NCBI GenBank assembly: GCA_963705305.1
Contig: OY970067.1
Span: forward strand, 2,240,001 to 2,304,000
DNA: 64,000 nt
Direction: 5' to 3'
Source: an uncultured Methylomirabilota bacterium
GTDB lineage: Bacteria > Methylomirabilota > Methylomirabilia > Methylomirabilales > 2-02-FULL-66-22
Below the pieces are notes generated by a model, which did no database searches, was not told the origin of the DNA, and worked only from the letters and a program-made list of their open reading frames with translations. Shown here one piece after another: positions 19,650 through 39,378 of this stretch. The translations under genes were made by a program, and so were the position numbers. Each line of letters opens with the position of its first letter. The stretch's first letter is position 1.

Positions 19650-19874
19650 TTATTCCAATTCGGGCCCGATGAAGCGACAGGCGACCACCTGCAAGCATCG
19701 GGGGCACAGGTAGGCGACCCGGATGATCTGCGGGTAGCGGGACGACAGGGCGTCGGATACGGGTTCGGAGGGAATTCGACAGATTGGGCAGCGAGGCGGT
19801 CGTGAGACAAGCCTGTCCAGCATTACCATGCCGAACGCAAAGAGGGCGAGAAGTCCGCCCACGAGTATGGCCAT
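19650..19874 (-). CDS. Small membrane-anchored CxxC...CxxC (zinc-ribbon-like) protein
   Basis: GAAGGAG RBS; N-terminal TM helix, then CPIC and CPRC. Confidence 0.6.
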   Translation of the reverse strand: MAILVGGLLALFAFGMVMLDRLVSRPPRCPICRIPSEPVSDALSSRYPQIIRVAYLCPRCLQVVACRFIGPELE

Positions 19875-19959
19875 CGCCGTCTCCTTCAGCGGCCGTCGTG
19901 CGCTGTCGCCGGACTCGATCTTCGGGCGGCCCCCGCCGCTCCGGGGAGGTTGTCGGCCG

Positions 19960-21531
19960 TCAGACCAGGACCTCACTGCCGAGGCCGGCCGCCAGGACGC
20001 CCGGGTCTTCCGCGGCCACGGCCAGCAGGCCATCGGCGACGGTCCGGTCGTTGGTGACCCGGGGCACCTTGTGCTGGTCTCCCAGCTTTCCGCTCTTCCG
20101 CAGCCATCGGTAAAACGTCCCGGAAGGCAGGGGAGTGGCCAGGGGGGGGATCATGCCGACGTCGCCCGTCCGCTTGGTGTGATAGTCGTTGTTCAGATTC
20201 ATGAGCGTCTCGTCCAGGGTCCGGAGGAACACGCCCGGGTCCGGCGGGGAAGTGCGGAACTCCACCAGCCACTCGTGCCCGCCGCGGGACTCGCCCAGCG
20301 AGGGGTAGCGCGGCGCGACCGTGAACTCCACCGCATCCGCGCCCGTCACCTGACAGGCCCGCACCATGGCCTGCTCGACCTCCTCGACAATGACGTTCTC
20401 TCCAAAGGCGTTCACGAAGTGGCGGATCCGGCCGGCAATCTGCAGACGCAGCGGGTCGCGGGCGATGAAGCGCACCGTGTCCCCCAAAAGATAGGACCAG
20501 AGGCCCGCAGGGCTGCTGAGGACGATGGCGTAGACACGGCCCAGTTCGATGTCGGCCACCGTGTGGCGGCGGGGGGACTCGCTGCCCAGATCCTCGAGCG
20601 GCACGAACTCGTAAAAGATGCCGTAGTCCAGCATGAGCGTGAGGCCGCCGCCCGTCTCGGTTTGGACGGCCACGAAACCCTCCGATGCCGGGTACACCTC
20701 GATCCGGTGCAGCGGGCGCCCCATCCGCTCCTCGAAGGTCCGGAGGTAGGGCTCGAACGCCACGCCGCCATGAATGAACACTTGCAGGTCGGGCCAGCGC
20801 TGGGACAGGCTCTGAATGGGGCGGCCGGCGTCCCGGCAGGCCTGGGCGATGCGCTCGAAGAGGATGGTGACCCAGGACGGCATGCCGGAAAGGAGTCGCA
20901 CGTCCTGCCACGCCGCCAGGGCGGCCACGGCCGCGATGCGCGCCTCCCAGTCCGGGATGGCGGCGGTGGCCGGCCCCGGAGAATATCGCCCCCGAATCCC
21001 CGGAGGGAGGCGGCGGACGACCAGTCCGGACAGGTCGCCGACCAGACACCCGTTGCCGATCGGGGTGAGGGTCGAGGCGCCGCCCAGGAAGAGCAGCGAT
21101 CCCCCCAGGAGGGGGGCGGCCCCGACCCGCTCCACAGCCAGGAGGAGCGCATCCCAGCCCCCTTTCCGGTGGGACGCCAACGCTTCCGGGGGCACCGGGA
21201 TGAGCTTGTCTCCGGCCGTGGTGCCCGACGTCTTCACCCAGTAGCGGGGTCGCCCCGGCCATGTGACATCGTGCGCCCCCTCGAGGGCGCGCGCCAGGAG
21301 CGGCTGAAGATCCAGATACCCGCGCACCGGAACCCGCGCCTGGTAGTCGGCCACCGACCGGATGCCGGCGAACCCGTGGACGCGGCCGAATTCGGTGAGG
21401 CGGGCGGCTGCCACCATCTGAAGGAGGGTTCGCTCCTGCATCTCGGCCGCACGCCGCCAGATCTGTTCCCAGGCCCGGCGGCGCTGCCCCGCATACCAGT
21501 CGAGGAGCGCGGCGAGCGGGCGGCCGATCAT
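19960..21531 (-). CDS. GH3 family (acyl-adenylate forming, acyl-amido synthetase-like) protein
   Basis: KTSGTTAGDKLIP P-loop, YPASEGF, GIFYEFVP, GLWSYLLGDTVRF, GDQHKVPR; start overlaps the upstream gene's stop (ATGA). Confidence 0.9.
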   Translation of the reverse strand: MIGRPLAALLDWYAGQRRRAWEQIWRRAAEMQERTLLQMVAAARLTEFGRVHGFAGIRSVADYQARVPVRGYLDLQPLLARALEGAHDVTWPGRPRYWVKTSGTTAGDKLIPVPPEALASHRKGGWDALLLAVERVGAAPLLGGSLLFLGGASTLTPIGNGCLVGDLSGLVVRRLPPGIRGRYSPGPATAAIPDWEARIAAVAALAAWQDVRLLSGMPSWVTILFERIAQACRDAGRPIQSLSQRWPDLQVFIHGGVAFEPYLRTFEERMGRPLHRIEVYPASEGFVAVQTETGGGLTLMLDYGIFYEFVPLEDLGSESPRRHTVADIELGRVYAIVLSSPAGLWSYLLGDTVRFIARDPLRLQIAGRIRHFVNAFGENVIVEEVEQAMVRACQVTGADAVEFTVAPRYPSLGESRGGHEWLVEFRTSPPDPGVFLRTLDETLMNLNNDYHTKRTGDVGMIPPLATPLPSGTFYRWLRKSGKLGDQHKVPRVTNDRTVADGLLAVAAEDPGVLAAGLGSEVLV

Positions 21532-22322
21532 GCCGCCACTCCCGCAAGCGCGACGGGGCGTTGGCGGCGCTCCTGGGTGCGGGCCAGCCATCCCGCCAGG
21601 ATGGTGTTGAAAGTCTCCGGCCGCTCCAGCATGGGGGCATGGCCGCAACGAGGCATGAGGAAGAGATCGGAGTCGGGAATCAGCGCGTGGAAGCGGCGGG
21701 CCACGTCGGGGGGCGTGATCCGGTCTTCCTCGCCCCAGATGATGCAGGTCGGGACGTCGATGCTGGGCAGACGTTCCTCGATGTTCCGGCGCTTGGCCGC
21801 GCGCGCCGCCTGGAGCAGTCGCAGGGCGGCATCGCGCGTGGTCACGGCTTGCTGGACGGCCTCCACCCATTGGGGGGTGACCAGGGTCGGGTCGTAGAAG
21901 ATCTCCTCCATCTTCTCACGGACCCAGGCACAGCTCGGCCGGTGGGGGACTCCCCGCGTGAAGCTGCGCTCGAAGAGTCCCGAGGAGCCGGTGAGGACCA
22001 ACCCGGAGACTCGCGCGGGGTGAGCCAGGGCCAGCTCCAGCGCCACGTGGCCGCCCAGGGAGTTCCCCCCGACGACGGCCCGATCCAGTCCCCGCAGATC
22101 CATGAACCGTTTGACGCGCTCGCTCAGGCCCGGCAGCGAGATCTCGGCGAGGTCGAGATCGAAGATCCGGAGGGCCAGCGCAATGGGACGGCAGAATCTG
22201 CCCAGGGTCCGGAGGACCGGCTCCCAGTGATCCACCTCGCCCATGAGGCCGTGGAGCAACAGAATCGGCTCACCCTGCCCCCGCTCGCGCCAGTGAAACT
22301 CCGCACCACCGATGTGACTCAC
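21528..22322 (-). CDS. Alpha/beta-fold hydrolase
   Basis: LLHGLMG, GNSLGG nucleophile elbow, WGEEDRITP, CGHAPMLE; AAGGAGG RBS before GTG. Confidence 0.92.
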   Translation of the reverse strand: MSHIGGAEFHWRERGQGEPILLLHGLMGEVDHWEPVLRTLGRFCRPIALALRIFDLDLAEISLPGLSERVKRFMDLRGLDRAVVGGNSLGGHVALELALAHPARVSGLVLTGSSGLFERSFTRGVPHRPSCAWVREKMEEIFYDPTLVTPQWVEAVQQAVTTRDAALRLLQAARAAKRRNIEERLPSIDVPTCIIWGEEDRITPPDVARRFHALIPDSDLFLMPRCGHAPMLERPETFNTILAGWLARTQERRQRPVALAGVAA

Positions 22323-22426
22323 CGTTGCCTCCTTTGTATGCCGGATCGTTGTGGTCTCTCCCGGTGTCAGCGCATGGGAGGAGAGATTGGGACGGGGGAG
22401 AGATACCGGCAACAGATTGCGGCGGA

Positions 22427-22453
22427 ATGACTGCCGGATGACGGGAGAGTGAA
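22427..22453 (-). promoter_or_regulatory. Pho-box-like array for the hydrolase-GH3 operon
   Basis: Minus strand TTCAC-N6-GTCAT-N6-GTCAT (11-bp period). Confidence 0.72.
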
Positions 22454-22469
22454 TTTGCGAGGGAGAAAA

Positions 22470-22497
22470 TGTCACGGCGGGGTCATCACCGGGTCAT
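22470..22497 (+). promoter_or_regulatory. Pho-box-like array for the PHP-GT4 gene
   Basis: TGTCAC-N5-GGTCAT-N5-GGTCAT (11-bp period). Confidence 0.75.
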
Positions 22498-22646
22498 CCT
22501 GGGTTGGTCTCATGGCATGCGTCGCGAGGTCCTCCCTCCGCGATGCGTGACCCTCCTCCCCCCCGGCGCGCCCAAGGGCGCGCCGGGGCCCTCCCTTCGG
22601 CGAGGGATGGGAAGCAACGGATATTCAGCAGGCGAGGAGCTGCGAG

Positions 22647-25157
22647 ATGGCGATTAAAGCCGATCTCCACTGTCATTCGAGATGCTCCGACCAGCCCGAG
22701 GAATGGCTCCTGCGGCGGCTGGGAGCCCGCGAGAGCTACACGGAGCCGCGACAAGTCTACGACCTGGCCCGAAGGCGCGGGATGGACCTAGTGACCATCA
22801 CCGATCACAACGAGATCCGCGGAGCCCTGGAGATCGCAGGGCTGCCGGAGGCATTCGTGAGCGTCGAGGCCACCGCCAGCTTCCCGGAGGACCGGTGCCG
22901 AATCCACGTCCTGGTGTTCGATGTGACCGAAGACCAGTTCGGGGAGATCCAGCGCCTGCGGGACAATCTCTACGACCTCCAGGCCTACCTCCAGCGCGAA
23001 CGGCTGGCCCACAGCGTGGCGCATCCGCTGCTGCGGGTCGGCGGCCGCTTCTCGCTCTGGCACCTGGAGCGCCTGTTGCTGCTGTTCCCCTGCTTCGAGG
23101 TGGTCAATGCCAGCCGCCACCGGAGCAGCCGCGACCTGATGCACTGGCTGCTCTCGCGGCTGAGCGCGGGGCTGATCAGCGATCTTGCCAACACCCATGA
23201 TCTGGAGCCCGTCGGGGAGAGCCCCTGGGTCAAGGGAAGAACGGGCGGCTCCGACGATCACAGCGGACTGTTCGTCGCCAAGGCATACACCGTGGCGGAC
23301 GGGGCGGAAGACCGGGCCGGGTTCCTGGACCATCTCCGGCGCGGCCTGACCAGGGCGGAGGGCACCCCAGGAACCGCGCAGAGCTTTGCCCACACTCTGT
23401 ACGCCATCGCCCATCAATTCTACCGCAGCCAGTTCCGGGCGGGCCCCGGGCCGGGCGGCGATCTCCTCGGCCAGCTGCTTCGCGAGTTCTTCGAGTCGGA
23501 GACCCCCGGGTGTCGCATCCTCCATCGTATCCGGGGATGGGGGCGGGCCATGTCCCCATGGAAGGAGCAGCATCGCCGCGAGGAGCGGGCCTTCAAGGAA
23601 GTGACGATTGACGCTCTGCGCGAGGTAATGGCGCGCGATTGGCAGTCGGCGTCGCTGCCGGTGGAGGGTCCGGCGCACCACCGCCTCAACCGGGAGACGT
23701 TCTTCCTGGCCAGCCAGCTCACCAACCGACTGCTCTTCGAGTTCACCCGCACGGCGGTGAAGAAATTCCTCAAAGGAAGCTTCTTCGGCAGCCTGCAAGC
23801 CCTGAGCGCCCTGGGGCCGGTCATCCTGGGGACCGGGCCGTACCTGTTCAGTTATCACAGCCAGAACAAGGACCGTCGCTTCCTGGCCGAGGTGCGCCGG
23901 CGATTTGGCGGTCCGGGCCCGTCGGCGGGACCGCGGCCCAAGCGGGCCTGGTTCACGGATACGCTCAACGAGGTGAACGGCGTGGCCACGACGGTCGCTG
24001 CCATGGCGGAGGCCGCCGGAAGGGTGGGAGCCGATCTGACGATCGTGTCGTCCACGGAGGATCCCCCGCCCCTGGGCGGAAGGCTCAAGAACTTCCCGCC
24101 CATCGGGACCATCACGTTCCCCGAATATGTGTTCCAGCCGCTGGCATTCCCTCCGGTGCTGAACGTGGTGGATTACTGCGAGCGGCAGGGGTTCACGGAG
24201 GTGATCATCAGCACCACGTTCAGCCTGGGCCTGACCGGTCTGGCGACCGCCCGCCTCCTGGGGCTCCCGGCCGTCGGCATCTACCATACCGACCTGCCGG
24301 AGTATGCGCTCCGGTACACCCAGGACGAGCAGGTGGCGGATCTGACGCGGCGGTACGCCCGATGGTTTTACGGCCAGATGGATCGGGTCTACGTGCGCTC
24401 CTCGGCATACCGCGAAGAGCTGGCGGACTGGGGGATCCCGCGGGAGCGGCTGCGGCTGCTTCCGGCAGCGGTGGACCTGGAGGCATTTCATCCCCAATGG
24501 CGGGATCCCGCCCTCTGGCATCAGCAGGGCCTGAACGGAGAGACCAAGCTCCTGTACGTGGGGCGGCTGGCGCGGGAGAAGGATCTGGATATCCTGGCGC
24601 GGGCCTACCGCCAGCTCCGCGAGCTGAGGTCGGATATCACCCTGGTCGTCGTGGGGGATGGTCCCTATCGGGACGGGTTGCAACGGGTCTGCGCGGGGCT
24701 GCCCGTCCTCTTCACCGGCTTCCTCTCCGGCGAATCGCTCTCCCGGGCCTACGCCTCCGCCGATATCTTCGTCTTTCCCAGCAGCACCGACACGCTCGGC
24801 AACGTGGTGCTGGAGGCGCAGGCCTCGGGACTTCCCGTCGTCGCCTGCAACGCCGGCGGCCCCCAGGATATCCTCCGCGAGGGGATCACGGGACTGCTCA
24901 TCCCGCGGCGGGACCCCGAGCGGCTCGCCGCGGCGATTCGGGAGCTCGCGTCGGATGCCTCCCGCCGCCGCCGGATGGGCCTGGAGGCCCGTCAGCATGT
25001 GGAGCATCGGACCTGGGACGCCGCGCTCCGGGAATTCTGGTCGGATCTGGCTGACCTGGCGGCGGACGGAGAGTCGGCCCCCGACTCCGCGATCTGTGTC
25101 TCCGCAGCGTGCCGCCCCGGGGACCCTGCTCCCCGCACCATCCGTCCGGCGGCGTGA
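22647..25157 (+). CDS. PHP phosphoesterase domain fused to a GT4 glycosyltransferase
   Basis: N-terminal DLHCHS, TDHN, AHP, GGSDDH; C-terminal [45 protein letters not shown]. Confidence 0.9.
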
Positions 25158-25377: not shown

Positions 25378-25590
25378 GTGAGAACCCTGGCTCTCGTGTC
25401 GTATGACCATTTCTTCGTGGATCCCCTGACCGCCCAGCCGCACGATCCTGACGTGCAGGCCTTGATGCGGGTGTGCAACGTCCACAATGTTGCCCTGGCC
25501 ACGAACCTGGCAGCCGCCGACTTCGTCATTGCCGCGCTGGCACAGCGCGAGCGGGACGAGATCGCCCGCCTGGCGCGCAGCGCGGCGTGA
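25378..25590 (+). pseudogene. mgsA: Methylglyoxal synthase with a large internal deletion
   Basis: [18 protein letters not shown] joined to [32 protein letters not shown]; the ATGTTG and SGPxGGD segments are missing. Confidence 0.82.
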
Positions 25591-26045: not shown

Positions 26046-27158
26046 TCACCGCCAGAACATGCAGGCGGCCACCGCGTCCACCAGGCGCCGCATGTCCGCC
26101 GGCGTCACGTCCCCGATGTTCCCGATCCGGAACGTATCGGCGGTCGAGACCTTCCCGGGGTAGATCACGAACCCGCGTGCTTTCAGCTCCCGATAGAATC
26201 GCGGGAACTCGAACGCGGGATGCGAGGGCGTGAGGAACGCGGTGATGATGGGGGACTGCAGGGTTTCGGGGAGGAGGGCGGCAAAACCCAGATGCTGCAT
26301 GCCTCGAACCAGGACGCGGTGGTTCTCCGCGTACCGGCGGTAGCGCGCCTCGACCCCGCCTTCCGCCTCCAGCTCGCGCAGAGCCTGGGCGAAGGCGCGG
26401 ACCACGTGGGTGGGGGACGTGTATCGCCACTTGCCGCCGTGCTCCTCCATCTCCCGCCACTGATCGTACAGATCGAGGCTCAGGGAGCGGGCCCGGCCTT
26501 TCAGCAATTCCATGGCTGCGCGGCGGGCGATGACGAAAGAGAAGCCCGGCACCCCCTGGATGCACTTGTTGGCGCTGCTGATAAGGAAGTCCGCCCCGAC
26601 GGCCTCGGCGTCCAGCGGAATCCCCCCGAAGCTGCTCATGGCATCCACGATGCAGGTCTTGCCGAACCGCTTCACGACGCCGCCGATCTCGGCGATGGGG
26701 CTCAGCATCCCCGTGGTGGTCTCGCAGTGCACGACCGCCACGTGGGTGATATCCGGCCGCAATTCGAGCGTCCGTCCCAGGACCTGAAGGTCCGGCGGGT
26801 TGACCTCGCCGCTGTCGTTCACGAGGAAGGGGATGCGCAGCCGCCGCGCGATCTGCGCCATGCGGGCGCCATAGGCCCCGTTCACCAGGACCAGCAGCGT
26901 CCCGTCCTCAGGAAGAGCGGAGCCGATGGTTGCCTCGACCCCGAAGGTGCCGCTGCCCTGCATGAGGACCGCCGTGTACCCCTCGGCCCTCGTGGCCGCT
27001 GTCACCAGGCCGTTCCGAATCGTCTGGACGATCTCATGGTAGTCCTCGTCCCACGTGCACCAGTCGCGGAGCATGGCGGCCTTGACCGTCTTGGTGGTAG
27101 ACAGAGGACCGGGCGTGAGCAACAGATACGGGTTGTCCGGCAGCGAGCGAACGTCCAC
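26046..27158 (-). CDS. phnW: 2-aminoethylphosphonate--pyruvate transaminase
   Basis: [45 protein letters not shown]. Confidence 0.95.
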
Positions 27159-27246
27159 GGTTGCCTCCTCAGGCGCGGTCGGGCGGTGCGCATCGATTCA
27201 GGCGGCGAATTTCCTGGCAAGACAGGCGCGAGCGGCCTCCAGTCCC

Positions 27247-28059
27247 TCAGGGCCGCTCGCCGCGCGCCAATCGCGCGTTGATCTCTTCGACGAGTGTGGG
27301 GCAGTCGGCGACGCCGTCCGCCACGTAATGGGCCCCGGCCTCCCGGAGCCTCCGCCTGATGGCCTCCAGGCGCGCCGCCAGGTCCCGAGAGTCCAGCGCG
27401 GCAACCTCGGCCTCGGTGAGCCCCAGCTCGTTGCCGGTCCTGGCCACCCCGATGGTCCACATGCCGGCGTTCAGCCCCTCCTGGATGTCGCTCACCGTGT
27501 CGCCGATCTTCACCATGGCCTCCATGGGATAGACCTGCAGCCGGATGGCGTTGAGGTAGCACATCCAGGGGAAAGGGCGGCCGGCCGGGACATCCGAGGA
27601 GCACACGACAGCGTCCGGGGCATAGCCGCGCTGCCGGGCCTCGGGGACCAGCATCTCCATCATGGGACCGGTGTATCCGGTGCTGGAGCCGATCCGCACC
27701 CTGCTCCGCCGGAGGGTCTCGACGGCCTCGAGAAGTCCCGGGATGGGGGCCGCGTGGCGCGCGACGCATTCGGTCATGAGCGGCTCCACGTCGGCCTCGC
27801 CCGGCTTGCGGCCGTGCGCGGCCCGCCACTTGGCCGTGACGGATGGTGTTTGACACATGCTTCGGACATGGTCCTTCTTCATGAGTCCCATGGGGCCTCG
27901 GGCTTCCTGCACGGTCACCTCGACTCCGCGGCGCCGGAAGACCTCCAAGAACACCGCCACCGGGCCGATGCAGCCGTAGTCCACGGCTGTGCCGGCCCAA
28001 TCCAGGACAGCGCCCCGGATCGGGCCGCTGTAGGGAGCAGTGCGAACAGACACATCCAT
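27247..28059 (-). CDS. phnX: Phosphonoacetaldehyde hydrolase (phosphonatase)
   Basis: DWAGTAVDYG, PMGLMK (Schiff-base Lys), GRPFPWM, KIGDT, EGLNAGMW. Confidence 0.93.
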   Translation of the reverse strand: MDVSVRTAPYSGPIRGAVLDWAGTAVDYGCIGPVAVFLEVFRRRGVEVTVQEARGPMGLMKKDHVRSMCQTPSVTAKWRAAHGRKPGEADVEPLMTECVARHAAPIPGLLEAVETLRRSRVRIGSSTGYTGPMMEMLVPEARQRGYAPDAVVCSSDVPAGRPFPWMCYLNAIRLQVYPMEAMVKIGDTVSDIQEGLNAGMWTIGVARTGNELGLTEAEVAALDSRDLAARLEAIRRRLREAGAHYVADGVADCPTLVEEINARLARGERP

Positions 28060-28136
28060 CGAGGCTCCTTTCGAGCGCTTGCGAGACAAGCGGAGCGACT
28101 CTACCCACGCCGGTATTACGAGAGGGTATTGCGCAC

Positions 28137-28153
28137 GTGACAATTGGGTGACA
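28137..28153 (-). promoter_or_regulatory. Pho-box-like site upstream of phnXW
   Basis: Minus strand TGTCAC-N5-TGTCAC. Confidence 0.68.
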
Positions 28154-28223
28154 TCGCGAGGGGGAGGCGTGCCGGTCGGCTTTGCGGGCGTCTGCCGAAC
28201 CGGCTGACCGATGACCCGAGGAA

Positions 28224-28250
28224 TTCATCGAACTGTTCGCACCCGGTAAC
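28224..28250 (+). promoter_or_regulatory. Weaker Pho-box-like array upstream of the C-P lyase operon
   Basis: TTCAT-N6-GTTCG-N6-GTAAC, preceded by GAA as in other arrays here. Confidence 0.5.
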
Positions 28251-28275
28251 ACAGGGGCACCAGAGTTCTGCCGGA

Positions 28276-28479
28276 ATGAGCGTACGCATGCCGATTCTCC
28301 GATTCATCAGGAAGGCGATTTCGGCGGATGCCGATGGCGTAGCGGGTCTGCTGACCCAGTTGGGGTATTCCCATACAGGGGAATTTGTCCGGTGTCACAG
28401 CCGGCGTGCACTGGCCCATGAATTCTACCAGCGGCGAGGATTCGAGGAGTCTCCGAAGTATTTGATGAAGCGTCTGTGA
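28276..28479 (+). pseudogene. Internally deleted GNAT acetyltransferase (PhnO-like)
   Basis: N-terminal IRKAISADADGVAGLLTQLGY fused to C-terminal RRALAHEFYQRRGFEESPKYLMKRL; the acetyl-CoA motif A is absent. Confidence 0.72.
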
Positions 28480-28492
28480 AGCGTGAAGGCAT

Positions 28493-28951
28493 ATGGATTT
28501 CCAGGGAAGCAGTGAGCTGCCCCGCTCCCGGGCGGCCTGGATGGAAGTGCTGTCCCAGAGCCGGCCGGATACGGTGGCGCGATTGGCGCGCCGAGTTGAA
28601 AGCCTGGCCTCGTTCGAGGTGACACGCCCTCCGGCCCAGAGCCTGCTCCTCCTCACCGTGGAGGAGTCGGTCGAGGGCAACCCGTTTCATCCCGGGGAGA
28701 TCCTGGTGTCGACCTGCGAGGTGCACCTCGCCGATCGCCTGGGCTTTGGCGTCTGTCTGGGCGGAGACCTGGAGCGGGCCCGCGGCTGCGCCATCCTCGA
28801 TGCCGCGCTCCAGGCCGGCCTGCCGATGGCACCGGAGATCCTCCAGAGCCTCGCCGACGAGCGCGAGTGGCTGCTTCGCGGCCGCCATGCCGAGCAGGAA
28901 ATGGTGCAGTCCACGCGCGTGCGTTTCGACACCATGGAGCCGCAGCGATGA
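28493..28951 (+). CDS. phnG: C-P lyase subunit PhnG
   Basis: PFHPGEILVSTCEV, AILDAA, STRVRFDTM; first in the phn operon. Confidence 0.88.
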   Translation: MDFQGSSELPRSRAAWMEVLSQSRPDTVARLARRVESLASFEVTRPPAQSLLLLTVEESVEGNPFHPGEILVSTCEVHLADRLGFGVCLGGDLERARGCAILDAALQAGLPMAPEILQSLADEREWLLRGRHAEQEMVQSTRVRFDTMEPQR

Positions 28952-29550
28952 GCGAGGCGGCCTTGCGCGAACCCGGCTTTGGAAACGCCTCCGATACCCA
29001 GGCCATGTTCCGCCGGCTGCTGGAGGCAACGGCGCGTCCCGGCACCGTGGTGCCGCTCGGCCACGCCCGGCTCGCCATCCCCCCGCAGCGGCTGCGGCCC
29101 GCCTGCGCACTCCTGCTGAGCATCCTGGACCCCGAGGTCATGCTCGCCGTGGAGGGACCCGAGGCAGCGGGCTTGGCCGAGTATCTGCGCACCAACACAG
29201 GTGTCCGGCCGGCCGCCTTGGAAGACGCTGATTTTGTGGTCGTCACGGGGGAAGGGTCCGGCGGTCGGGTTCGTGGGGCCAAATGCGGGCGTCTGGAGGC
29301 GCCGCACGAGGGGGCGACGCTCGTCTACGCCCCCACAGCGCTAGGGGAGAGGGGATCCGTCCTGCTGCGGCTCACCGGTCCCGGTATTCCGATGGAGCGG
29401 CGCCTCGCGGTGACCGGCATTGCCGCGGACGAGTGGCGAGTTCTGGACTCGCTCCGGGATTTTCCGATGGGGGTGGACATCTGGCTCGCCGCGCCGGACG
29501 GCCGGCTGGCGGTGATCCCGCGCTCGACCCGCTGGACGCTGGAGGTGTGA
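28948..29550 (+). CDS. phnH: C-P lyase subunit PhnH
   Basis: TQAMFRRLLEATARPG, PHEGATL, LTGPGI, FPMGVD, IPRST. Confidence 0.9.
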   Translation: MSEAALREPGFGNASDTQAMFRRLLEATARPGTVVPLGHARLAIPPQRLRPACALLLSILDPEVMLAVEGPEAAGLAEYLRTNTGVRPAALEDADFVVVTGEGSGGRVRGAKCGRLEAPHEGATLVYAPTALGERGSVLLRLTGPGIPMERRLAVTGIAADEWRVLDSLRDFPMGVDIWLAAPDGRLAVIPRSTRWTLEV

Positions 29551-29551
29551 C

Positions 29552-30652
29552 GTGGGGTATGTGGCGGTCCGCGGCGGGGAGGATGCCATCCGCAACAGCG
29601 AAACCCTCCTGGTCCTGTACCGGCGCCGGGGACAAACCGGGCCAATTCAGGTCCGCCAAATCCAGGAGCAGATGCGGTCGGCCGTGGATCGGGTGATGGC
29701 CGAGGGCTCGCTCTTCGATGCCACCCTGGCGGCCTTGGCCGTCAAGCAGGCGGAGGGCGACCTCGTCGAAGCTGCCTTCCTGGTGCGCGCCTACCGGTCC
29801 ACGCTCCCGCGCCTCGAGACCACCCCCGTCCAGCGAACCCAGGAGCTGCGTCTCATCCGCCGCATCTCGGCGGCCTTCAAGGATGTGCCGGGCGGGCAGA
29901 TCCTCGGCCCGACGCGGGATTACACCCAACGGCTCCTGGACTTCTCCCTCTTGGAGGAGTCCGAGGCCCTTCCCGAAGCGCCCTGTGTGCCCATGCCGGC
30001 CGGCACGCTCCCGGTCGAAAAGGTCTCGACGTTTCTGCGTCGCGAGGGGCTCTTGCCGGAGCCGCGGCGGGACGCGCCGATTCCGGTCGACATTACGCGG
30101 GAGCCCGTGGCATTCCCGATGCCGCGATCCGCCCGCCTCCAGCACCTCGCGCGGGGGGACGAAGGAGGCCTGCTGGCGCTGGCCTATTCCAGCATGCGCG
30201 GCTTTGGGAACGTCCATCCCACGGTGGCGGAGCTGCGCGTGGGCTATCTGCCGGTGCGGGTCTACGTCCCCGGCGAGCCCGAGCCGGTGACGATCGGCGA
30301 GGTGCTCGTGACGGAGGTGGAGCTGATCGCGCGCGACGGCGGCGGGGACGAGTCGCAGAGCGGGCCGCCCCGCTTCCATCTGGGATACGGCTTCGCCATC
30401 GGCCAGAACGAGCGGCGCGCCATCTGCATGGCGATTCTCGACCGGGCCATGATGGCCGAGCGGGCGTCGGCCCCGGCCGAAGATCAGGAATTCGTCCTGG
30501 CGCACATCGATGGCATCGAGGCGCAGGGCTTCACGAATCACTGGAAGCTCCCCCACTACGTGGACTTCCAATCCGAGCTGGACCGGGCCCGCGCCGGCAG
30601 GGCGGCCCCCGCCGCCGCGGCCGAGCCGGTCCACGCGGAGACCTCCGCGTGA
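29552..30652 (+). CDS. phnI: C-P lyase subunit PhnI
   Basis: YVAVRGGE, RRISAAFKDVPGGQILGPT, HWKLPHYVDFQSEL. Confidence 0.95.
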   Translation: MGYVAVRGGEDAIRNSETLLVLYRRRGQTGPIQVRQIQEQMRSAVDRVMAEGSLFDATLAALAVKQAEGDLVEAAFLVRAYRSTLPRLETTPVQRTQELRLIRRISAAFKDVPGGQILGPTRDYTQRLLDFSLLEESEALPEAPCVPMPAGTLPVEKVSTFLRREGLLPEPRRDAPIPVDITREPVAFPMPRSARLQHLARGDEGGLLALAYSSMRGFGNVHPTVAELRVGYLPVRVYVPGEPEPVTIGEVLVTEVELIARDGGGDESQSGPPRFHLGYGFAIGQNERRAICMAILDRAMMAERASAPAEDQEFVLAHIDGIEAQGFTNHWKLPHYVDFQSELDRARAGRAAPAAAAEPVHAETSA

Positions 30653-31533
30653 GCTACGCGTTTGCCTTTCTGGACGAGCAGTCCAAGCGGGCCGTTCGCC
30701 GGGCCCTGCTGAAGGCGGTGGCCATTCCGGGGTACCAGGTGCCCTTCGTCTCGCGAGAGCTGCCCATCTCGTACGGCTGGGGGACGGGAGGCATCCAGAT
30801 CACATCCGCCGTGATCGGGCCCACCGACACGCTCAAGGTGATCGACCAGGGGGCCGATGACAGCGTGAACGCGCTGAACATCAAGCGCTTCTTCGCGCGG
30901 ACCGCGGGGGTCGCCACGACCACCGAGACTGCGCGGGCGACCATCATCCAGACGCGCCACCGGATTCCCGAGGAGCGCCTGCGGGCCGATCAGCTCCTGG
31001 TGCTCCAGGTGCCGTATCCCGAGCCTCTCCGGCTGGTCGAGCCGCGCGAGACGGAGACCGCGCGGATGCACGCCGAGGCGGATTACGGCCGGATGTATGT
31101 CGCGCTCTATGAGGACATCGTCCGGCACGGCACGATCACCCTGCCTTGGCAATACCCCACCCTGGTGAACGGCCGCTACCTGATGAGCCCGAGCCCGGTG
31201 CCGCGGTTCGACAATCCGAAGCTGCATCAGGCGGACTGCCTGTTTCTCTTCGGCGCCGGTCGCGAGAAGCGGGTCTACGCGGTGCCCCCCCTCACCGACG
31301 TGGTCTCGCTCGCCTTCGAGGACCACCCCTTCCGGGCCGAGTCCTTCGACCGTCGCGCCTGCCAGCGCTGCGGATCCACCGATACCTATCTGGACGAGGT
31401 GATTCTGGATGCGGCGGGGACGCGGAGCTTCCAGTGCTCCGATACCGCATTTTGCCGGCGGCGGCGCGAGGACCCCGACATCCCGCGCGAGTGGGGAGGA
31501 GCTCACCCATCGTTGGCGGGGCGCTCCACATGA
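30649..31533 (+). CDS. phnJ: C-P lyase radical SAM subunit PhnJ
   Basis: KAVAIPGYQVPF, YGWGTGG, CQRC...QCSDTAFC cysteine cluster. Confidence 0.96.
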   Translation: MSYAFAFLDEQSKRAVRRALLKAVAIPGYQVPFVSRELPISYGWGTGGIQITSAVIGPTDTLKVIDQGADDSVNALNIKRFFARTAGVATTTETARATIIQTRHRIPEERLRADQLLVLQVPYPEPLRLVEPRETETARMHAEADYGRMYVALYEDIVRHGTITLPWQYPTLVNGRYLMSPSPVPRFDNPKLHQADCLFLFGAGREKRVYAVPPLTDVVSLAFEDHPFRAESFDRRACQRCGSTDTYLDEVILDAAGTRSFQCSDTAFCRRRREDPDIPREWGGAHPSLAGRST

Positions 31534-32301
31534 TCCCGCTCCTGTCCGTCCGGGAGCTGACCGTCACGTACCCGAACGGCGTGGTGGGCTGCGGAGGCGT
31601 CTCCTTTGACGTCCAGCCCGGCGAGGTCCTCGGCGTGGTGGGGGAGTCGGGATCCGGGAAATCGAGCCTCCTGAACGCCCTGGCCATGGCGCTGTCGCCC
31701 AGCCACGGGTCCGCCGTCTTCCAGAGCCCCGGCCGCGGGCCGCAGGCGCTCTTCGCCTTGAACGCGCAGAGCCGGCGCTGGCTGCGGCACCGGGAGATCG
31801 CCCTGGTTCACCAGAACCCGCAACGGGCGCTCAACTTCGACCTCTCGGCGGGGGCCAATGTCGCCGAGGCACTCCTCATGGCGGAATGGCGCCACTACGG
31901 CCGGATCCGCGCCCGGGTGGCGGAGCTGTTTGCCCGGGTCGAGCTCGAACGTCGGGCGCATGGACGAACTGCCGGGGCGCTTCTCCGGAGGCATGCAGCA
32001 GCGCGTGCAGCTCGCCAAGGCCCTGGCGAGCGGCCCGGCCCTGCTGCTGCTGGACGAGCCCACCGGCGGGCTGGATGTCTCGATCCAGGCGCGGCTCCTG
32101 GACCTGATCCGGGAGCTGTCCCGGGACCTCGGCACCGCCATGCTCCTGGTGTCGCACGATCTGGAGGTGGTCCGCCTGCTTGCCCGCCGGACCCTGGTGA
32201 TGCAGCAGGGGCGCGTCGTCGAGGCGGGCCTCACGGACCAGATCCTGGAGGACCCCCAGGAGCCGTACACGCAACTCCTCGTGCATTCCATGCTGACATG
32301 A
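31530..32301 (+). pseudogene. phnK: PhnK ABC ATPase with an apparent +1 frameshift at ~31948
   Basis: GESGSGKS in one frame and FSGGMQQRVQLA/LLDEPTGGLD in another; removing one A from GAAC (31947-31950) gives VELDVGRMDELP. Confidence 0.88.
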
Positions 32302-32993
32302 CCATGACGCCGCGTCTCGAGGTCCGGGAACTCACGAAAGGCTTCACGCTGCACATGCTGGGCGGGAAGCGGCTGATGGCGTTCGTGGATGTGCAGTTTA
32401 CCCTCGACCCCGGGGAGTGCCTCCAGATTGAGGGTCCGAGCGGCGTGGGGAAATCCTCGCTGCTCAAGTGCTTGTACCGAACCTACCGCCCCTCACACGG
32501 CCGGGCCGTCCTCCACACCGACGGGAGAAGCGTGGACTTGGCGTCCGCGCCCGAGTCGGACATTCTGGACCTGCGGCGCCGGGCCGTCGGGTATGTCAGC
32601 CAGTTCTTCTCCGCGATCCCGCGGCAATCCGCCGCGGCCGTGGTGGCCGAGCCGCTTCTGGAGCTGGGGTTGGATGCACCGACTGCGCGGCGCCGCGCCG
32701 AGGCGATGCTGGCCCGCCTGGACATCCCCAAGCCCCTCTGGGAGGGCTTTCCCGCCACGTTCAGCGGCGGCGAGCGGCAGCGGGTGAACCTGGCGCGCGC
32801 CTTCATCGCCCCGCGGGAGCTGATCCTGCTGGACGAGCCGACGGCCAGTCTGGATGCCGCGCGGCGCGACATCGTCTTCTCCCTGCTGGCCGAGCTGAAG
32901 CGGGCCGGTACCGCGCTCATCGCCGTGCTCCATGATGCCGTGCCGACCGCGCTCGTCGACCGTCGCCTCCATCTGCAGGAGGTTGAATCGTGA
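32298..32993 (+). CDS. phnL: C-P lyase ABC ATPase PhnL
   Basis: KGFTLH, GPSGVGKS, YVSQF, PATFSGGERQRVNLAR, LDEPTASLD. Confidence 0.93.
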   Translation: MTMTPRLEVRELTKGFTLHMLGGKRLMAFVDVQFTLDPGECLQIEGPSGVGKSSLLKCLYRTYRPSHGRAVLHTDGRSVDLASAPESDILDLRRRAVGYVSQFFSAIPRQSAAAVVAEPLLELGLDAPTARRRAEAMLARLDIPKPLWEGFPATFSGGERQRVNLARAFIAPRELILLDEPTASLDAARRDIVFSLLAELKRAGTALIAVLHDAVPTALVDRRLHLQEVES

Positions 32994-33817
32994 GGCGTTG
33001 CTTGCCGGTGGCCGGGGATTCCCGGGCGGCTTTGGCGGGGCGGCTGGCCCTGCTGGGGGGACGGATTGCCCTGGAGCGCGCCCGGCTGCCCGAGATTCAG
33101 TGGAAAGAGGACGGCTCAATGGTGACGGATGTCGATATCGCCGTCCAGCAGTATATCTCGGCCAAGATCCGGCAGGAATTCCCCCAGGACGGCATCCTCG
33201 GAGAGGAGGGGTCCGAACCGGCCACCTGGCCTCCCGAGACGCGGACCTGGTGGGTGCTGGACCCCCTCGACGGCACGGCCAACTTCGGTCTGGGAATTCC
33301 CGGCTTCGCAGTGTCCGTGGGCGTCCTGCGAGACGGGCAATCCTGGGCGGGCGCCGTATACGATCCCACGGCGAACTGGCTCTATCTTGCCTGCGCGGGG
33401 CTGGAAGCCTGGCTGAACGGCCACCGGCTCCGGCTTCGCCCGCGGCCGCTCTCCTCGCAATCCTTTGTCGCCATCCGGACCCCCTACGAAGGGGAGATCC
33501 CGCCATTCGTCGCGCGGTGGCTCCGTCGATATCGGTTGCGCCGGTTTGGCTCGACGGCACTGCAGCTGTGCTATGCGGCCTCCGGAGGTCTGGCGCTGAT
33601 TCATGATCAACGGGCATTTCTATGGGATGTAGCAGGGGCCGCCGCTGTGCTGCTGGAAGCCGGCGGGGTCCTGACCACGCCGGAGGGGAGCCCGTTATTC
33701 CCGGTGGCTGCCTCCGCGTACTCGGGCGAGCCAATCGCATTCCTCGCCGGGGATCCGCTCTGCCATCCGGTCGCGCTGGCCGATATCCGCGCCGGACGCA
33801 ATGGTGACGCGCCATGA
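32990..33817 (+). CDS. Inositol monophosphatase (FIG superfamily) protein
   Basis: VTDVD, ILGEEG, WVLDPLDGTANF, WDVAG; 4-nt overlaps with phnL and phnM. Confidence 0.9.
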   Translation: MRRCLPVAGDSRAALAGRLALLGGRIALERARLPEIQWKEDGSMVTDVDIAVQQYISAKIRQEFPQDGILGEEGSEPATWPPETRTWWVLDPLDGTANFGLGIPGFAVSVGVLRDGQSWAGAVYDPTANWLYLACAGLEAWLNGHRLRLRPRPLSSQSFVAIRTPYEGEIPPFVARWLRRYRLRRFGSTALQLCYAASGGLALIHDQRAFLWDVAGAAAVLLEAGGVLTTPEGSPLFPVAASAYSGEPIAFLAGDPLCHPVALADIRAGRNGDAP

Positions 33818-35031
33818 CGGAGAGGGGACATGCTGTGGAGGCGAGGCGATTCATCCTCCGGGGCGGGGACATTGCGACGCCCACCCGGGTGATCAGCGGA
33901 GGGGCGCTCGTCATCGAAGGGGGGCGCATTGCCGCCGTGCTGGAGACCACGCCGCCGCTGGGCGGCGAAGAGGTGCTGTGGGTCTCCGGCCTCATTGCGC
34001 CGGGCTTCATCGATCTGCACTCGGACGCCTTGGAAAAGGAGATCCGGCCGCGACCTTCGGCCGTCATGCCGGTAGAACTGGCCCTCATGGAGTTCGATCG
34101 CAAACTGGCGGGCCACGGGATCACGACAATCGTGCACGGGCTGTGCTTCACCGAAACCGACGGAGACTTCCGCGCCTACGCCGACTCCGAGCGAACTGCA
34201 GGAATCCTCCGGCAGGGAAGGACCACCTATCTGGTTCGGCACCTCCTCAACGCCCGGTACGAGGTGACGGATTTTCGCGCAGCGCCGACCGTCCACCGGC
34301 TTCTGGAGGCCGGCGCACTGGCGATGGTCTCCTTCATGGACCACGCCCCCGGGGCGCGGCAATTCAAGAGTCTCGCCGATTTTGTTCGTTATTACGCGCC
34401 CACCCTCGGCCGCGACCCGGAGTCTGTGCTTCGCCTGGCGGAGGAAAAGCACCGGCGAAAGCGGGAGGATCGCGAGCTCCTGGAGGCGACGGCGATTGGG
34501 CTGGCAGAGGCGGCCCGGGCCCGGGGGGTCGTCCTGGCGTCCCATGATGATGAATCCGCGCGGGACGTTGCCTGGGCCGTGCAGCGAGGCATCACCATCT
34601 CGGAATTTCCCGTATCCGTCGAGGCGCTGCTGGCGGCCCGGGAACACGGGCTCCACATCGTCATGGGTGCCCCCAACGCGCTCCGGGGGGGCTCCACCTC
34701 GGGAAATCTCTCGGCGCTCGAGGCGATCCGGCAGGGGGGCATTGACAGTCTGTGCTCGGACTACTATCCCGCGTCGCTGCTCCACGCGGCCGTCGGGCTG
34801 CAGGCCAAGGGGGCGACCAGCCTGCCGGAGGCCCTACGCCTGGTGACCTTGCATCCGGCGCGTGCGCTTGGGCTGGACCGAGACATCGGATCGCTGGAGG
34901 TTGGAAAAGCCGCCGACCTCGTGATCGTCAACCAGCGACAGGGTATTCCCGTCGTGACCCGGACCTTCCATGGAGGCCGGGAAGTGTTTGCCGCCGGATA
35001 CGGATCACTCGGCGCTGCCGCGGCCGCCTAG
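33814..35031 (+). CDS. phnM: Ribose 1-methylphosphonate 5-triphosphate diphosphatase
   Basis: PGFIDLHSDALEK, SFMDHAPG, ASHDD, SEFP, MGAPN, LCSDY. Confidence 0.94.
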   Translation: MTERGHAVEARRFILRGGDIATPTRVISGGALVIEGGRIAAVLETTPPLGGEEVLWVSGLIAPGFIDLHSDALEKEIRPRPSAVMPVELALMEFDRKLAGHGITTIVHGLCFTETDGDFRAYADSERTAGILRQGRTTYLVRHLLNARYEVTDFRAAPTVHRLLEAGALAMVSFMDHAPGARQFKSLADFVRYYAPTLGRDPESVLRLAEEKHRRKREDRELLEATAIGLAEAARARGVVLASHDDESARDVAWAVQRGITISEFPVSVEALLAAREHGLHIVMGAPNALRGGSTSGNLSALEAIRQGGIDSLCSDYYPASLLHAAVGLQAKGATSLPEALRLVTLHPARALGLDRDIGSLEVGKAADLVIVNQRQGIPVVTRTFHGGREVFAAGYGSLGAAAAA

Positions 35032-35175
35032 CGCGGCGGGGCAGGGAAGGCGGCGGGGTTGCGCTCGCAGGGCCTCCCGGCGTTCCCTGACAAGGCCCCT
35101 GTCCGACGCTTCCGGCTCGAACCAGCCGGCTAAGCATGCGTCTCCCACCTGTCGCATTGAGGAGGTGCCGCCCCG

Positions 35176-35904
35176 ATGGGCAAGATCAGCATGGTGATGT
35201 TCGACCTGTCCGGAACGACTGTTCATGACGATACCGGGGTGCGGGATTGTCTCTATGCGGCTGCGCAGGAATATGGCCTCACGACCACGCCGGAGGAGAT
35301 TCTGTACCACATGGGGACCAACAAGATTCACCTGTATCAATTCCTGATCGCCCGGGCCCGGGGGCGCAAGATTGACTTCGAAGACTTCGAGAAGATCAAG
35401 GATCCCGCCACGTACGCTGAGGCAAAAAGAGTGTTCGACCGATATCAAGAGCTCATGCTCGGCCACTACCGGACGCAGTGCAAGGAAGTACCCGGCGCGG
35501 CCGACGTGTTCCGCTGGTGCCACGCGCACGGGATCAAGGTGGCGACGGACACCGGTTTCCACCGGATCATCACCGAGGCGATCATGGAAGGCCTGGGCTG
35601 GGTGCGGGATCGCCTGGTGGACCTCTCGGTGGACGTGGAGCATGTCCCCGGGGAGGTGGGCCGCCCGGCGCCCTTCATGATCTTCTACGCGATGACCCGC
35701 CTCGGCATCCAGAGCGTGCACGAAGTGATCAAGATCGGGGACACGCCGGCTGACATGCTGGAGGGTCGCAATGCGGGATGCCGAGGGGTGATCGGCGTGC
35801 TCAGCGGTCCGCGGCCCGTCACCGACTGGGGGAAGTACTGGCACACGCACGTCATCCCGAGTGTGGCCGATCTGCCGCACCTGATCGAAGCCGAGTTCAG
35901 CTGA
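35176..35904 (+). CDS. HAD phosphonatase-like hydrolase (PhnX-like)
   Basis: FDLSGTTV, HMGTNK, GRPAPFMI, KIGDTPADMLEGRNAG. Confidence 0.85.
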   Translation: MGKISMVMFDLSGTTVHDDTGVRDCLYAAAQEYGLTTTPEEILYHMGTNKIHLYQFLIARARGRKIDFEDFEKIKDPATYAEAKRVFDRYQELMLGHYRTQCKEVPGAADVFRWCHAHGIKVATDTGFHRIITEAIMEGLGWVRDRLVDLSVDVEHVPGEVGRPAPFMIFYAMTRLGIQSVHEVIKIGDTPADMLEGRNAGCRGVIGVLSGPRPVTDWGKYWHTHVIPSVADLPHLIEAEFS

Positions 35905-36002
35905 GCAGGGTGCACTCATTGCCGCCTGACCCGGGTCGAGCTCGCGTGACCCGGAAGTTCGATCGCCTCCAGAGAGCCTGTCGTTCGCACGGGAGAGGGA
36001 AG

Positions 36003-37097
36003 ATGCCGGAAACTTCCAATGCCGCCGTCATGATCGCGCCCAACAAGCCCCTGGAGTTTCGCCGGTACCCTCTTCCCTCGGTGGAGGCGGGCGCGGTGCT
36101 GGTCAGGATCCTGTGTTCCACAATCTGCGGATCGGACCTGCACACGTGGCTGGGTCGCCGGAGCAGCCCCACCCCCGTCATCCTCGGCCATGAAATCGTG
36201 GGCGAGATCGTGGAGCTGGGGAAAGGGGTCACCCATGACTCGGGCGACCGCCCCCTCAAGGTCGGGGATCGGATCACCTGGACGATCATGGACGGCTGCG
36301 GGAAATGTTACTCCTGCCGAGAAAAAGGCCTGATGATGAAGTGCATGCGCCTGAAGAAGTACGGGCACGACAGTTGCGAGAATCCCCCGCATCTTCAAGG
36401 TGGGTTTGCGGAGCACTGTTACATTACTCCGGGGACCTGTGTGGTCAAGATCCCTGACAATCTGACGAACGAGGAGGTTGCGCCGGCCAACTGCGCCCTG
36501 GCGACTGTGTCGGCAGGATGGGACGTCCTCAAGATTCGCCCCTTCGAAAATGTCCTGATCCTGGGGGCAGGCGCACTTGGCATCTATGCGGCGGCGCTCG
36601 CCAGCCACACCGGGTGCAACAAAGTGATCGTCACGGATATTCTGGATCATCGGCTGAACCTGGTGAGAGAGTTCGGAGCCACCGACGTGATCAACACGAA
36701 CGGGATGGAGGCCGAACGGGTCGTTCAGACGGTCCGGTCCTTGATCGGGGGACACGGGGTGGATCTGGCCATGGAGGTGGCGGGCGCTCCGGCCCTCATC
36801 CCTGTCGGGCTGAAGTGCCTGCGGACGGGGGGCCGGATGGTGCTTCACGGCACACCCCTTCCTGGATCGCAGTTCAGCTACGACGCTTCCGATATCATCT
36901 TTCGCTGGTTGCAGATCCACGGCGTTCACAACTACGACACGAAACACCTTCAGATGGCTGTGGACTTCCTGTCCCAGACGAATCACAAATTTCCATTTCA
37001 CAAACTGGTTACCCATCGGTGTGAGCTGCATGAAATCAACGCGGCGCTGAAGCTGGCCGAGTCCGCCATGGGGATCCGGGTGGCCGTGTTGCCCTGA
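36003..37097 (+). CDS. Zn-dependent alcohol dehydrogenase (phosphonate-catabolism-associated type)
   Basis: ICGSDLH, GHEIVG, CGKCYSC...C, APANCALAT, GAGALG, GVHNY. Confidence 0.88.
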   Translation: MPETSNAAVMIAPNKPLEFRRYPLPSVEAGAVLVRILCSTICGSDLHTWLGRRSSPTPVILGHEIVGEIVELGKGVTHDSGDRPLKVGDRITWTIMDGCGKCYSCREKGLMMKCMRLKKYGHDSCENPPHLQGGFAEHCYITPGTCVVKIPDNLTNEEVAPANCALATVSAGWDVLKIRPFENVLILGAGALGIYAAALASHTGCNKVIVTDILDHRLNLVREFGATDVINTNGMEAERVVQTVRSLIGGHGVDLAMEVAGAPALIPVGLKCLRTGGRMVLHGTPLPGSQFSYDASDIIFRWLQIHGVHNYDTKHLQMAVDFLSQTNHKFPFHKLVTHRCELHEINAALKLAESAMGIRVAVLP

Positions 37098-37147
37098 GGG
37101 TTCGGTGCCGCCGGCGCGCAGGAGGGAAGGCCCTTCCGCCGCGGATC

Positions 37148-39328: not shown

Positions 39329-39378
39329 GCGGATGGGGAATACGGGTCCGTCACCCATCATGGGGAATCGACGCTGCA

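Follow-up and report, generated by a model that had tools for sequence, protein, structure and literature searches.

A 64,000-nucleotide stretch of the genome of an uncultured Methylomirabilota bacterium (contig OY970067.1, positions 2,240,001 to 2,304,000; hereafter the window) carries a divergent gene locus that probably serves phosphate-controlled remodelling of membrane lipids. On one strand a gene for an alpha/beta hydrolase is coupled to a gene of the GH3 family of acyl-acid amido synthetases, and on the other lies a gene for a fusion of a PHP phosphoesterase domain with a GT4 glycosyltransferase (PHP-GT4). We assign a probability of roughly 0.7 to the reading that phosphorylated PhoB (PhoB~P) switches both arms, that GH3 and the hydrolase produce an acyloxyacyl aminolipid, and that the glycosyltransferase produces glucosyl- or glucuronosyl-diacylglycerol. 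The chemistry of both lipid arms is already known from work of 2016 and 2025 and explains most of the locus; the new elements are the Pho control, the divergent GH3 clade and the PHP partner.

Divergent genes and back-to-back Pho-box-like arrays

An ATGA overlap couples the hydrolase stop codon to the GH3 gene, and the PHP-GT4 gene diverges on the opposite strand (Table 1). The hydrolase start codon is GTG, preceded by AAAGGAGG. Two arrays stand back to back inside the spacer of 324 base pairs (bp), separated by 17 bp, with minus-strand repeats (TTCAC, GTCAT, GTCAT) starting at 22453, 22442 and 22431 and plus-strand repeats (GTCAC, GTCAT, GTCAT) starting at 22471, 22482 and 22493, both with a period of 11. 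The pattern by which they were scored, [GT]TCA[CT], was chosen post hoc from the sequence and equals the central part of the CTGTCAT consensus in the literature; in 20,000 dinucleotide-preserving shuffles, the spacer never yielded even a single triple. Across the 5.6-Mb genome there are five perfect triples with period 11, two of them in this spacer, whereas the other periods between 7 and 18 have none to two each. The third, at 47799 in the same window, lies upstream of two receiver-domain genes and pstS, the fourth precedes a glycerophosphodiesterase-like gene accompanied by an ABC operon, and the fifth an ABC substrate-binding gene (the last two identities from translations). The arrangement described in the first-pass annotation, a coupled hydrolase-GH3 pair diverging from PHP-GT4 with a triple array in each direction, is thus confirmed. 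When one mismatch is allowed, the genome-wide matches number 38 at period 9, 33 at period 12 and 11 at period 11, a surplus at periods 9 and 12 that is probably due to codon periodicity. Because such mismatched repeats are commoner at those periods, the case for the arrays stands on the perfect arrays, their position and their context.

Table 1. Features of the divergent locus and its surroundings (positions within the window)
Feature	Position	Strand	Remarks
Alpha/beta hydrolase, OlsI-like	21528..22322	-	264 amino acids (aa); PF00561 73.6 bits
GH3-family acyl-acid amido synthetase, OlsH-like	19960..21531	-	523 aa; PF03321/PF23571/PF23572
PHP-GT4, Dde_3613/Agt-type candidate glycolipid synthase	22647..25157	+	836 aa; GT4 via Pfam, PHP via fold
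Triple Pho-box-like array facing hydrolase-GH3	22427..22453	-	TTCAC n6 GTCAT n6 GTCAT
Triple Pho-box-like array facing PHP-GT4	22471..22497	+	GTCAC n6 GTCAT n6 GTCAT
74-aa open reading frame (ORF) 3' of GH3	19650..19874	-	hydrophobic N-terminal stretch, two CxxC motifs
Methylglyoxal synthase (mgsA) C-terminal remnant, behind PHP-GT4	25378..25590	+	NF003559 68.8 bits, profile positions 82-129
Phosphate island (context, outside the unit)	26046..50607		phnW, phnX, C-P lyase genes, phnD-like ABC, phoU-pstBACS, phoR-/phoB-like

The locus shares features of the Pho regulon, namely upstream 11-bp direct repeats with a GTCAT core, which are common to known Pho genes, and PhoBR-like genes in the same window. 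The PhoB-like protein scores 282.9 bits with TIGR02154 against a cut-off of 296.2 and the PstS protein 374.8 bits against a cut-off of 205; several genes of the adjoining phosphate island carry Pho-like repeats of their own. On this motif and context we predict that both gene directions are under PhoB control. A scan for sigma-70 promoters found no site.

Related operons point the same way for the hydrolase-GH3 arm. Within Methylomirabilota, 13 of 27 hydrolase-GH3 operons (one operon without upstream DNA is left out of this count, and kin are not independent) have, at most 250 bp before the first gene, a perfect double repeat with period 11 that usually reads GTCAC-n6-TTCAC, against 0-1 operons at periods 8-10 and 12-14 and three on the reverse strand. 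The congener G005 has a matching triple at an equal distance upstream of its hydrolase, with a phosphofructokinase-like ORF as the divergent gene instead of PHP-GT4. Relative G010 (C15, about 139085-139360; L011 9062-9412) keeps a triple directly before a GH3 remnant of which the last 70 codons are left, a deletion having taken the hydrolase and most of GH3 and spared the operator, and in G009 a triple and then pstS come after the GH3 gene. Neighbours of the pairs in relatives, 40 ORFs of which were scanned, comprise PhoR/PhoB-like and pstS-like genes and those for Ppk, Ppx, PhoD, alkaline phosphatase, GDPD, PhnD, MgsA and phn functions.

Other counts speak against Pho control of the whole locus. 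Five pstS-like loci from four relatives reach just 8-9 of 10 repeat matches. Elsewhere, a perfect Pho-like array precedes PHP-GT4 at only one of 66 named loci with upstream DNA, and among 19 loci of Desulfobacterota type a perfect double repeat occurs at one and a near-perfect triple at two, so that the counts do not support Pho boxes as typical of PHP-GT4 genes in general. The first-pass annotation had proposed that co-occurrence and Pho boxes be checked across genomes; the expectation held in part for the boxes of the hydrolase-GH3 operons and failed for PHP-GT4, both in its boxes and in its co-occurrence with the pair.

The hydrolase-GH3 pair and the OlsH/OlsI route

Among NCBIfam families, the GH3 protein matches OlsH (NF052613, 388.7 bits). 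With ATP and Mg, OlsH joins free fatty acid to ornithine to yield N-acyl-ornithine, its alpha/beta-hydrolase partner OlsI is an O-acyltransferase that adds the second acyl chain from an unidentified donor, and knockout of the route abolishes ornithine lipid (Rivera-Najera et al. 2025, PMC12493201). As in the Singulisphaera acidiphila operon of that report, the window has a GH3 gene together with an upstream gene for a Ser-Asp-His alpha/beta hydrolase, directly coupled here whereas olsG lies between the genes in S. acidiphila. The window GH3 keeps three nucleotide motifs of OlsH (T101SGTTAGDK, Y280PASE and G343LWSYLLGD) and the equivalent of its essential serine (OlsH S115). The hydrolase has a predicted triad of S88, D200 and H228 and shares with OlsI the elbow xSLGG and the motifs SGL[FY] and CGHAP.

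For closer comparison, true OlsH-type genes were taken from metagenome contigs by means of the published P-loop motif, giving 34 loci, 33 of them with a GH3 match. The recovered genes that we tested pass the family cut-offs (four GH3s at 948-982 bits, three hydrolases at 440-462 bits). With the near-complete genes of this type the window GH3 shares 37-42% identity, and it falls in a clade of its own phylum, supported by a Shimodaira-Hasegawa-like approximate likelihood ratio test (SH-aLRT) value of 99, apart from the OlsH clade. For the hydrolase, identity to full-length OlsI reaches 22-29%, and a profile built from the true OlsI genes ranks it first among five hydrolases of its genome (57.5 bits, next paralogue 40.4).

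Several observations argue against equating the pair with OlsH and OlsI. Both proteins are far under the equivalog cut-offs (620 for OlsH; 79.9 bits against a cut-off of 385 for the hydrolase with OlsI, NF052614), the OlsI score of the hydrolase is no higher than its scores for unrelated hydrolase families, and a very long branch separates it from OlsI in a tree that, lacking paralogue outgroups, is no test of orthology. The OlsH cut-off is passed in none of 220 Methylomirabilota genomes, and equally in none of 151 genomes of the planctomycete phylum. The authors of the OlsH study (PMC12493201) expect other amino acids for homologues outside planctomycetes, as does a 2026 review (PMC12971839). 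Weighing these points, we regard the pair as a predicted divergent sister clade, at about 40% (GH3) and 25% (hydrolase) identity, that would act like OlsHI while standing outside both families by their cut-offs. By analogy, the GH3 product would be an N-acyl amino acid lipid, with ornithine as the leading guess for the amino acid, and the hydrolase would add a second acyl chain as OlsI does.

The outline of the first-pass annotation, in which phosphate starvation controls a GH3 that makes an N-acyl amino acid lipid and a GT4 that makes glycosyl-diacylglycerol, fits this evidence. Its claim that GH3 offers a route independent of the Ols enzymes does not, as the route was characterised in 2025 as OlsH/OlsI, and the physiological role that it wished to give to bacterial GH3 proteins for the first time had already been given by OlsH (PMC12493201). 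It also cast the hydrolase as the enzyme that frees fatty acids, which is probably wrong, the characterised partner being an O-acyltransferase. Since at about 25% identity the hydrolase is too distant from OlsI to settle its activity, we also considered it as a lipase that releases fatty acid from diacylglycerol or phospholipid for GH3, with a single-chain N-acyl amino acid as the end product. OlsH depends on free fatty acid, the lack of which its authors gave as the cause of its inactivity in living E. coli, and it prefers non-hydroxylated fatty acids, which are unable to take a second acyl chain (PMC12493201); a lipase would also suit the gene order PHP, hydrolase, GH3 found in 16 genomes, and the low identity to OlsI leaves room for one. 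The sole characterised GH3 partner of the hydrolase fold is nonetheless an acyltransferase and the OlsI profile places the window hydrolase first in its genome, so we consider a lipase unlikely and prefer an OlsI-like second acylation.

Two further features set the pair apart from OlsH/OlsI. A Pho-like array lies upstream in the window, and the terms 'Pho box' and 'phosphate limitation' are absent from the text of PMC12493201; a PHP gene often heads the hydrolase-GH3 operon in this phylum. The literature search found no description of Pho control of OlsH, subscription papers and bioRxiv supplements lying outside the scope of this search and of that on PHP proteins below. Predicted Pho-like control of an OlsHI-like operon is thus a new element here.

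Other aminolipid genes were few. PF13444 has a single match in the genome, a 566-aa protein (G000:C1:5509346-5511046; L209 1405-3105) in which an OlsB-family GNAT domain is fused to a class V aminotransferase-like domain, so that no clear alternative OlsB/OlsF route is apparent, an OlsF-specific profile not having been run. In relatives, the GH3 gene of G362:C30 (L174 6248-6922, 10862-11626) is directly followed by a class I methyltransferase, and PEMT-family, aminotransferase and Agt2-like GT4 genes lie near GH3 in G362 and G370:C42 (L164 1981-6260). By analogy with OlsG in planctomycetes, these neighbours are candidates for head-group modification.

The PHP-GT4 protein and the source of diacylglycerol

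The PHP-GT4 protein consists of a PHP phosphoesterase domain (aa 1-260), a helical linker (about 245-425) and a GT4 domain (about 430-805). The GT4 domain carries the motifs GRLAREKD and FPSSTDTLG and an H547/D715 dyad in which Asp replaces the usual Glu; motifs of the types GRVAxEKN and FPSxTDTFG and a His/Asp dyad are described for Agt/GTcp enzymes (PMC8231724). It groups with Desulfovibrionales fusions (41-44% identical) in one clade with support of 100/98, which stands beside a clade of Agt1, Agt2 and Shinella sequences (joint branch 86/90, midpoint root). Identity to the Pseudomonas aeruginosa Agt1/Agt2-type proteins, whose genes were assigned by gene order and PMC8528852, and to the Shinella Agt-type protein is 31-36%. 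By analogy with Agt/GTcp, whose activity has been demonstrated biochemically, and with Dde_3613 (below), for which the evidence is genetic, the GT4 domain would form glycosyl-diacylglycerol.

The closest functional precedent is Dde_3613 of Desulfovibrio alaskensis G20, an organism that at low phosphate exchanges more than 90% of its phospholipid for other lipids (Bosak et al. 2016, PMC5193443). Dde_3613 is a GT4 with a PHP-domain label in the supplement of that paper, and Desulfovibrionales proteins of the same architecture group with the window protein. It is required for low-phosphate fitness and for monoglycosyldiacylglycerol (MGDG) and glucuronic acid diacylglycerol (GADG); under phosphate limitation its mutant lacks both and keeps its phospholipids (PMC5193443). 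The main text on Dde_3613 is silent on the PHP domain and on any phospholipase. In contrast to the window, the aminolipid of D. alaskensis G20 is made by OlsF and not by GH3. PHP-GT4 is likely orthologous to Dde_3613, whose necessity for glycolipid formation at limiting phosphate was established in 2016, so that the novelty seen in the earlier annotation probably does not hold for this arm.

Two points weigh against this assignment. The match to Dde_3613 runs through the supplement label and the Desulfovibrionales homologues, not through the sequence of Dde_3613 itself, and the top NCBIfam family of the GT4 domain is the GlcNAc-phosphatidylglycerol synthase GpgS (NF053787, 154.6 bits). GpgS is a related GT4 of the same broad group whose acceptor is a phospholipid (PMC12713373), and by this precedent the window enzyme could glycosylate a phospholipid head group, as GpgS does with phosphatidylglycerol, with the PHP domain acting on the product. 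At 5 of 19 Desulfobacterota-type loci (L244, L245, L248, L249, L253) a gene that reads like phosphatidylserine decarboxylase in translation ends at most 83 bp upstream of PHP-GT4, which would suit a phospholipid substrate. The NF053787 score is, however, far under the cut-off of 480, the window has no gpgD/gpgF-like neighbours and neither a deacetylase nor a flippase beside the gene, and the Dde_3613 mutant specifically lacks MGDG and GADG. A sugar on a phospholipid spares no phosphorus and so fits poorly with a Pho array. We consider head-group glycosylation very improbable and retain glycosyl-diacylglycerol as the product.

The PHP domain was recognized from structure. Pfam assigns no PHP domain to the protein at E<=0.001, and Foldseek with the full-length model returned GT-B folds only. 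An AlphaFold2 model of aa 1-260, with a mean predicted local distance difference test (pLDDT) score of 92.6, aligned best in VIA-align with PHP-family structures, namely 7rty (Z 17.6, root-mean-square deviation 2.8, 207 residues aligned), 3e38 (17.3), 3o0f (16.5) and 2anu (16.3). The metal ligands H10, D53, H54, H87, H126, D203 and H205 are invariant in 41 homologues, and H8 and E74 are kept in at least 90% of them. As modelled, the N-terminal domain is a PHP barrel, and its metal ligands follow the pattern HxH, DH, E, H, H and SDxH. A PHP profile matched PDB sequences no better than E 0.008, and the ESM Atlas gave unnamed and PHP_C clusters.

A second kind of PHP protein accompanies the other arm in relatives. 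Stand-alone PHP proteins (PF02811 plus PF13263) occur in 26 of the 220 Methylomirabilota genomes at 27 places, with the hydrolase directly next at 16, a GT4 at two and neither at nine; in 16 genomes such a protein heads the hydrolase-GH3 operon, and in some its gene abuts or overlaps that of the hydrolase. GH3 is found in 22 of these 26 genomes against 18 of the 194 others, kin not being independent, and the hydrolase-GH3 pair is found with no detected PHP in 18 of 40 genomes. Fused and stand-alone PHPs match each other's profiles at just 12-28 bits, and the stand-alone profile scores the TrpH-like PHP of the genome higher (35.6), so that the idea of one common subfamily is unsupported. The two GT4s behind stand-alone PHPs have diverged strongly enough that the tree, which includes one of them, puts it on a long branch outside the Agt group. 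With such distant subfamilies and divergent GT4s, a common role is argued from context. Near phoR-like genes, a small HAD phosphatase gene, sometimes with a GNAT gene, lies divergent from or upstream of the stand-alone PHP (L222, L223, L224, L225, L159, L188, family f9).

Diacylglycerol for glycolipid synthesis has to be supplied either by a phospholipase C or by a phosphatidate phosphatase (PMC4796936). In the proteobacterial PlcP-Agt systems, as proposed from sequence for the window, a phosphoesterase and a GT4 under Pho-box control make glycosyl-diacylglycerol (PMC4796936, PMC8528852, PMC8231724), the difference being that PlcP, a calcineurin-like metallophosphoesterase, has a gene of its own and the window enzyme is a PHP barrel fused to its GT4. 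Three PlcP-type queries found no match in the genome at E<=0.01. PHP is the natural candidate for the diacylglycerol step. Seven PAP2 proteins are encoded in the genome and could supply diacylglycerol without PHP, which counts against such a need. PlcP occurs in 9 of the 220 phylum genomes (3 of 26 with stand-alone PHP and 6 of 194 without) and in none of 18 fusion-bearing genomes in a 151-genome Desulfobacterota-type set. Mutual exclusion of PHP and PlcP was not shown by these counts, and in the second phylum the comparison has no power because PlcP is present in just 2 of the 151 genomes.

A recurring PHP partner of both lipid routes is the new element here. For the role in phospholipid conversion that the first-pass annotation gave to the PHP part of PHP-GT4, the recurrence of stand-alone PHP beside the hydrolase-GH3 operon offers some indirect support. 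We put forward, as a tentative idea with less than even odds, that PHP-fold enzymes are an unrecognised, PlcP-independent means of stripping phosphate from membrane lipid, as phospholipase C or phosphatidate phosphatase, and that they were recruited twice, once by fusion to GT4 in Desulfobacterota, Verrucomicrobiota and others and once at the head of the Pho-boxed PHP-hydrolase-GH3 operon in Methylomirabilota. We hold it about equally plausible that these PHP domains are unconnected with lipids and are general Pho-regulon phosphatases or diesterases, acting on nucleotide or sugar phosphates, that travel with phosphate-starvation genes. The nearest solved folds are uncharacterised or have non-lipid substrates, and neither the fold searches nor the literature searches returned a characterised PHP acting on lipid, the latter finding no described PHP-GT4 fusion either. 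The mutual distance of the two PHP kinds, the nine places away from any lipid gene, the coexistence with PlcP in the phylum and the pairs that do without PHP are all in keeping with such a role. It would leave unexplained why a fusion to a lipid GT4 persists with intact metal ligands across several phyla, why PHP genes of a second subfamily adjoin or overlap that of the hydrolase in some genomes and stand before a GT4 in two more, and why GH3 is so much more frequent in genomes with PHP.

In the reading that we favour, the locus would work as follows. Under phosphate limitation, PhoB~P would bind the two back-to-back arrays and turn on both directions. In the left arm, GH3 would adenylate a fatty acid with ATP and Mg and join it to an amino acid to give a lyso-aminolipid, and the coupled hydrolase would attach the second acyl chain. 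In the right arm, PHP would most likely take the phosphate-bearing group off a glycerolipid, supplying diacylglycerol, to which GT4 would transfer glucose or glucuronic acid from a UDP-sugar. If PHP does act on lipid, the diacylglycerol that it releases where it heads the hydrolase-GH3 operon may be the acyl source missing in the OlsH/OlsI work. At the window locus a single PHP would in that case feed both outlets, and the aminolipid head group could be other than ornithine.

Distribution, neighbouring genes and implications

The three genes together are a one-off. Among the 220 phylum genomes the PHP-GT4 profile matches this genome only (one of 41 relatives, one of 66 genomes of the order), and a first genome scan with a single protein as query returned no match; other assemblies contain proteins of 63-66% identity, one of which has the label Candidatus Methylomirabilis sp. 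The fusion itself is widespread, with 904 and 3181 matches among 8000 scored candidates for two queries, and is carried by Geobacter, Desulfovibrionales, Syntrophobacteraceae, Verrucomicrobiota, Acidobacteriota and Pirellulales. Of 656 named PHP-GT4 loci the best 80, about 74 of them from Verrucomicrobiota, have neither GH3 nor hydrolase within flanks of up to 6 kb. By these counts a conserved three-gene system is unsupported, and we reject it. GH3 matches 56 of the 220 genomes, 40 of them at E below 1e-40, and the hydrolase lies directly upstream of GH3 in all 28 other phylum loci that have upstream DNA (30 loci returned). We regard PHP-GT4 as a rare acquisition that landed beside a hydrolase-GH3 operon native to the phylum.

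In the 151 genomes of the phylum to which a Desulfuromonadales genome belongs, 18 have the fusion and three have a strong GH3 match, two of the three being among the 18. In two Desulfuromonadales/Geobacter loci (G042:C100:224000-240000, L220; G044:C5:78000-92000, L221) GH3 lies just behind pstSCAB-phoU and is preceded by a protein of 363-375 aa, a third kind of GH3 partner, with an alpha/beta-hydrolase match at E 0.0009 in one locus and none in the other.

Around the locus, the 74-aa ORF had no Pfam or NCBIfam match and has a homologue behind the GH3 remnant of G010 (39%, E 1e-6). An intact mgsA gene follows GH3 in G225, and intact mgsA-like genes adjoin GH3 or stand-alone PHP in G225, G228 and G373. 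In the phosphate island, the genes of two PhoB-like receiver domains that stand alone (145 and 134 aa; 46807-47617, minus strand) lie between phoR and pstS, with a perfect triple array of their own in front; the domains are possibly modulators of PhoR signalling. A phnK-like gene (31503-32301, plus strand) is seemingly split over two frames, with its N-part in an ORF ending at 32993 and its C-part at 31858-32301, through a possible frameshift or sequencing error.

If the reading given here is true, phosphate-driven membrane remodelling extends to Methylomirabilota, for which our literature search found no lipid-remodelling paper, and the locus would for the first time tie the GH3 aminolipid route to regulation by PhoB. 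For the removal of phospholipid in D. alaskensis, a step for which no phospholipase is named in the main text of PMC5193443, the PHP domain offers a concrete candidate, and the same candidate is relevant to the 18 sampled Desulfobacterota-type fusion genomes, all of which lack PlcP. Should the PHP domains indeed act on lipid, surveys of lipid remodelling that use plcP as the marker would undercount anoxic and soil bacteria.

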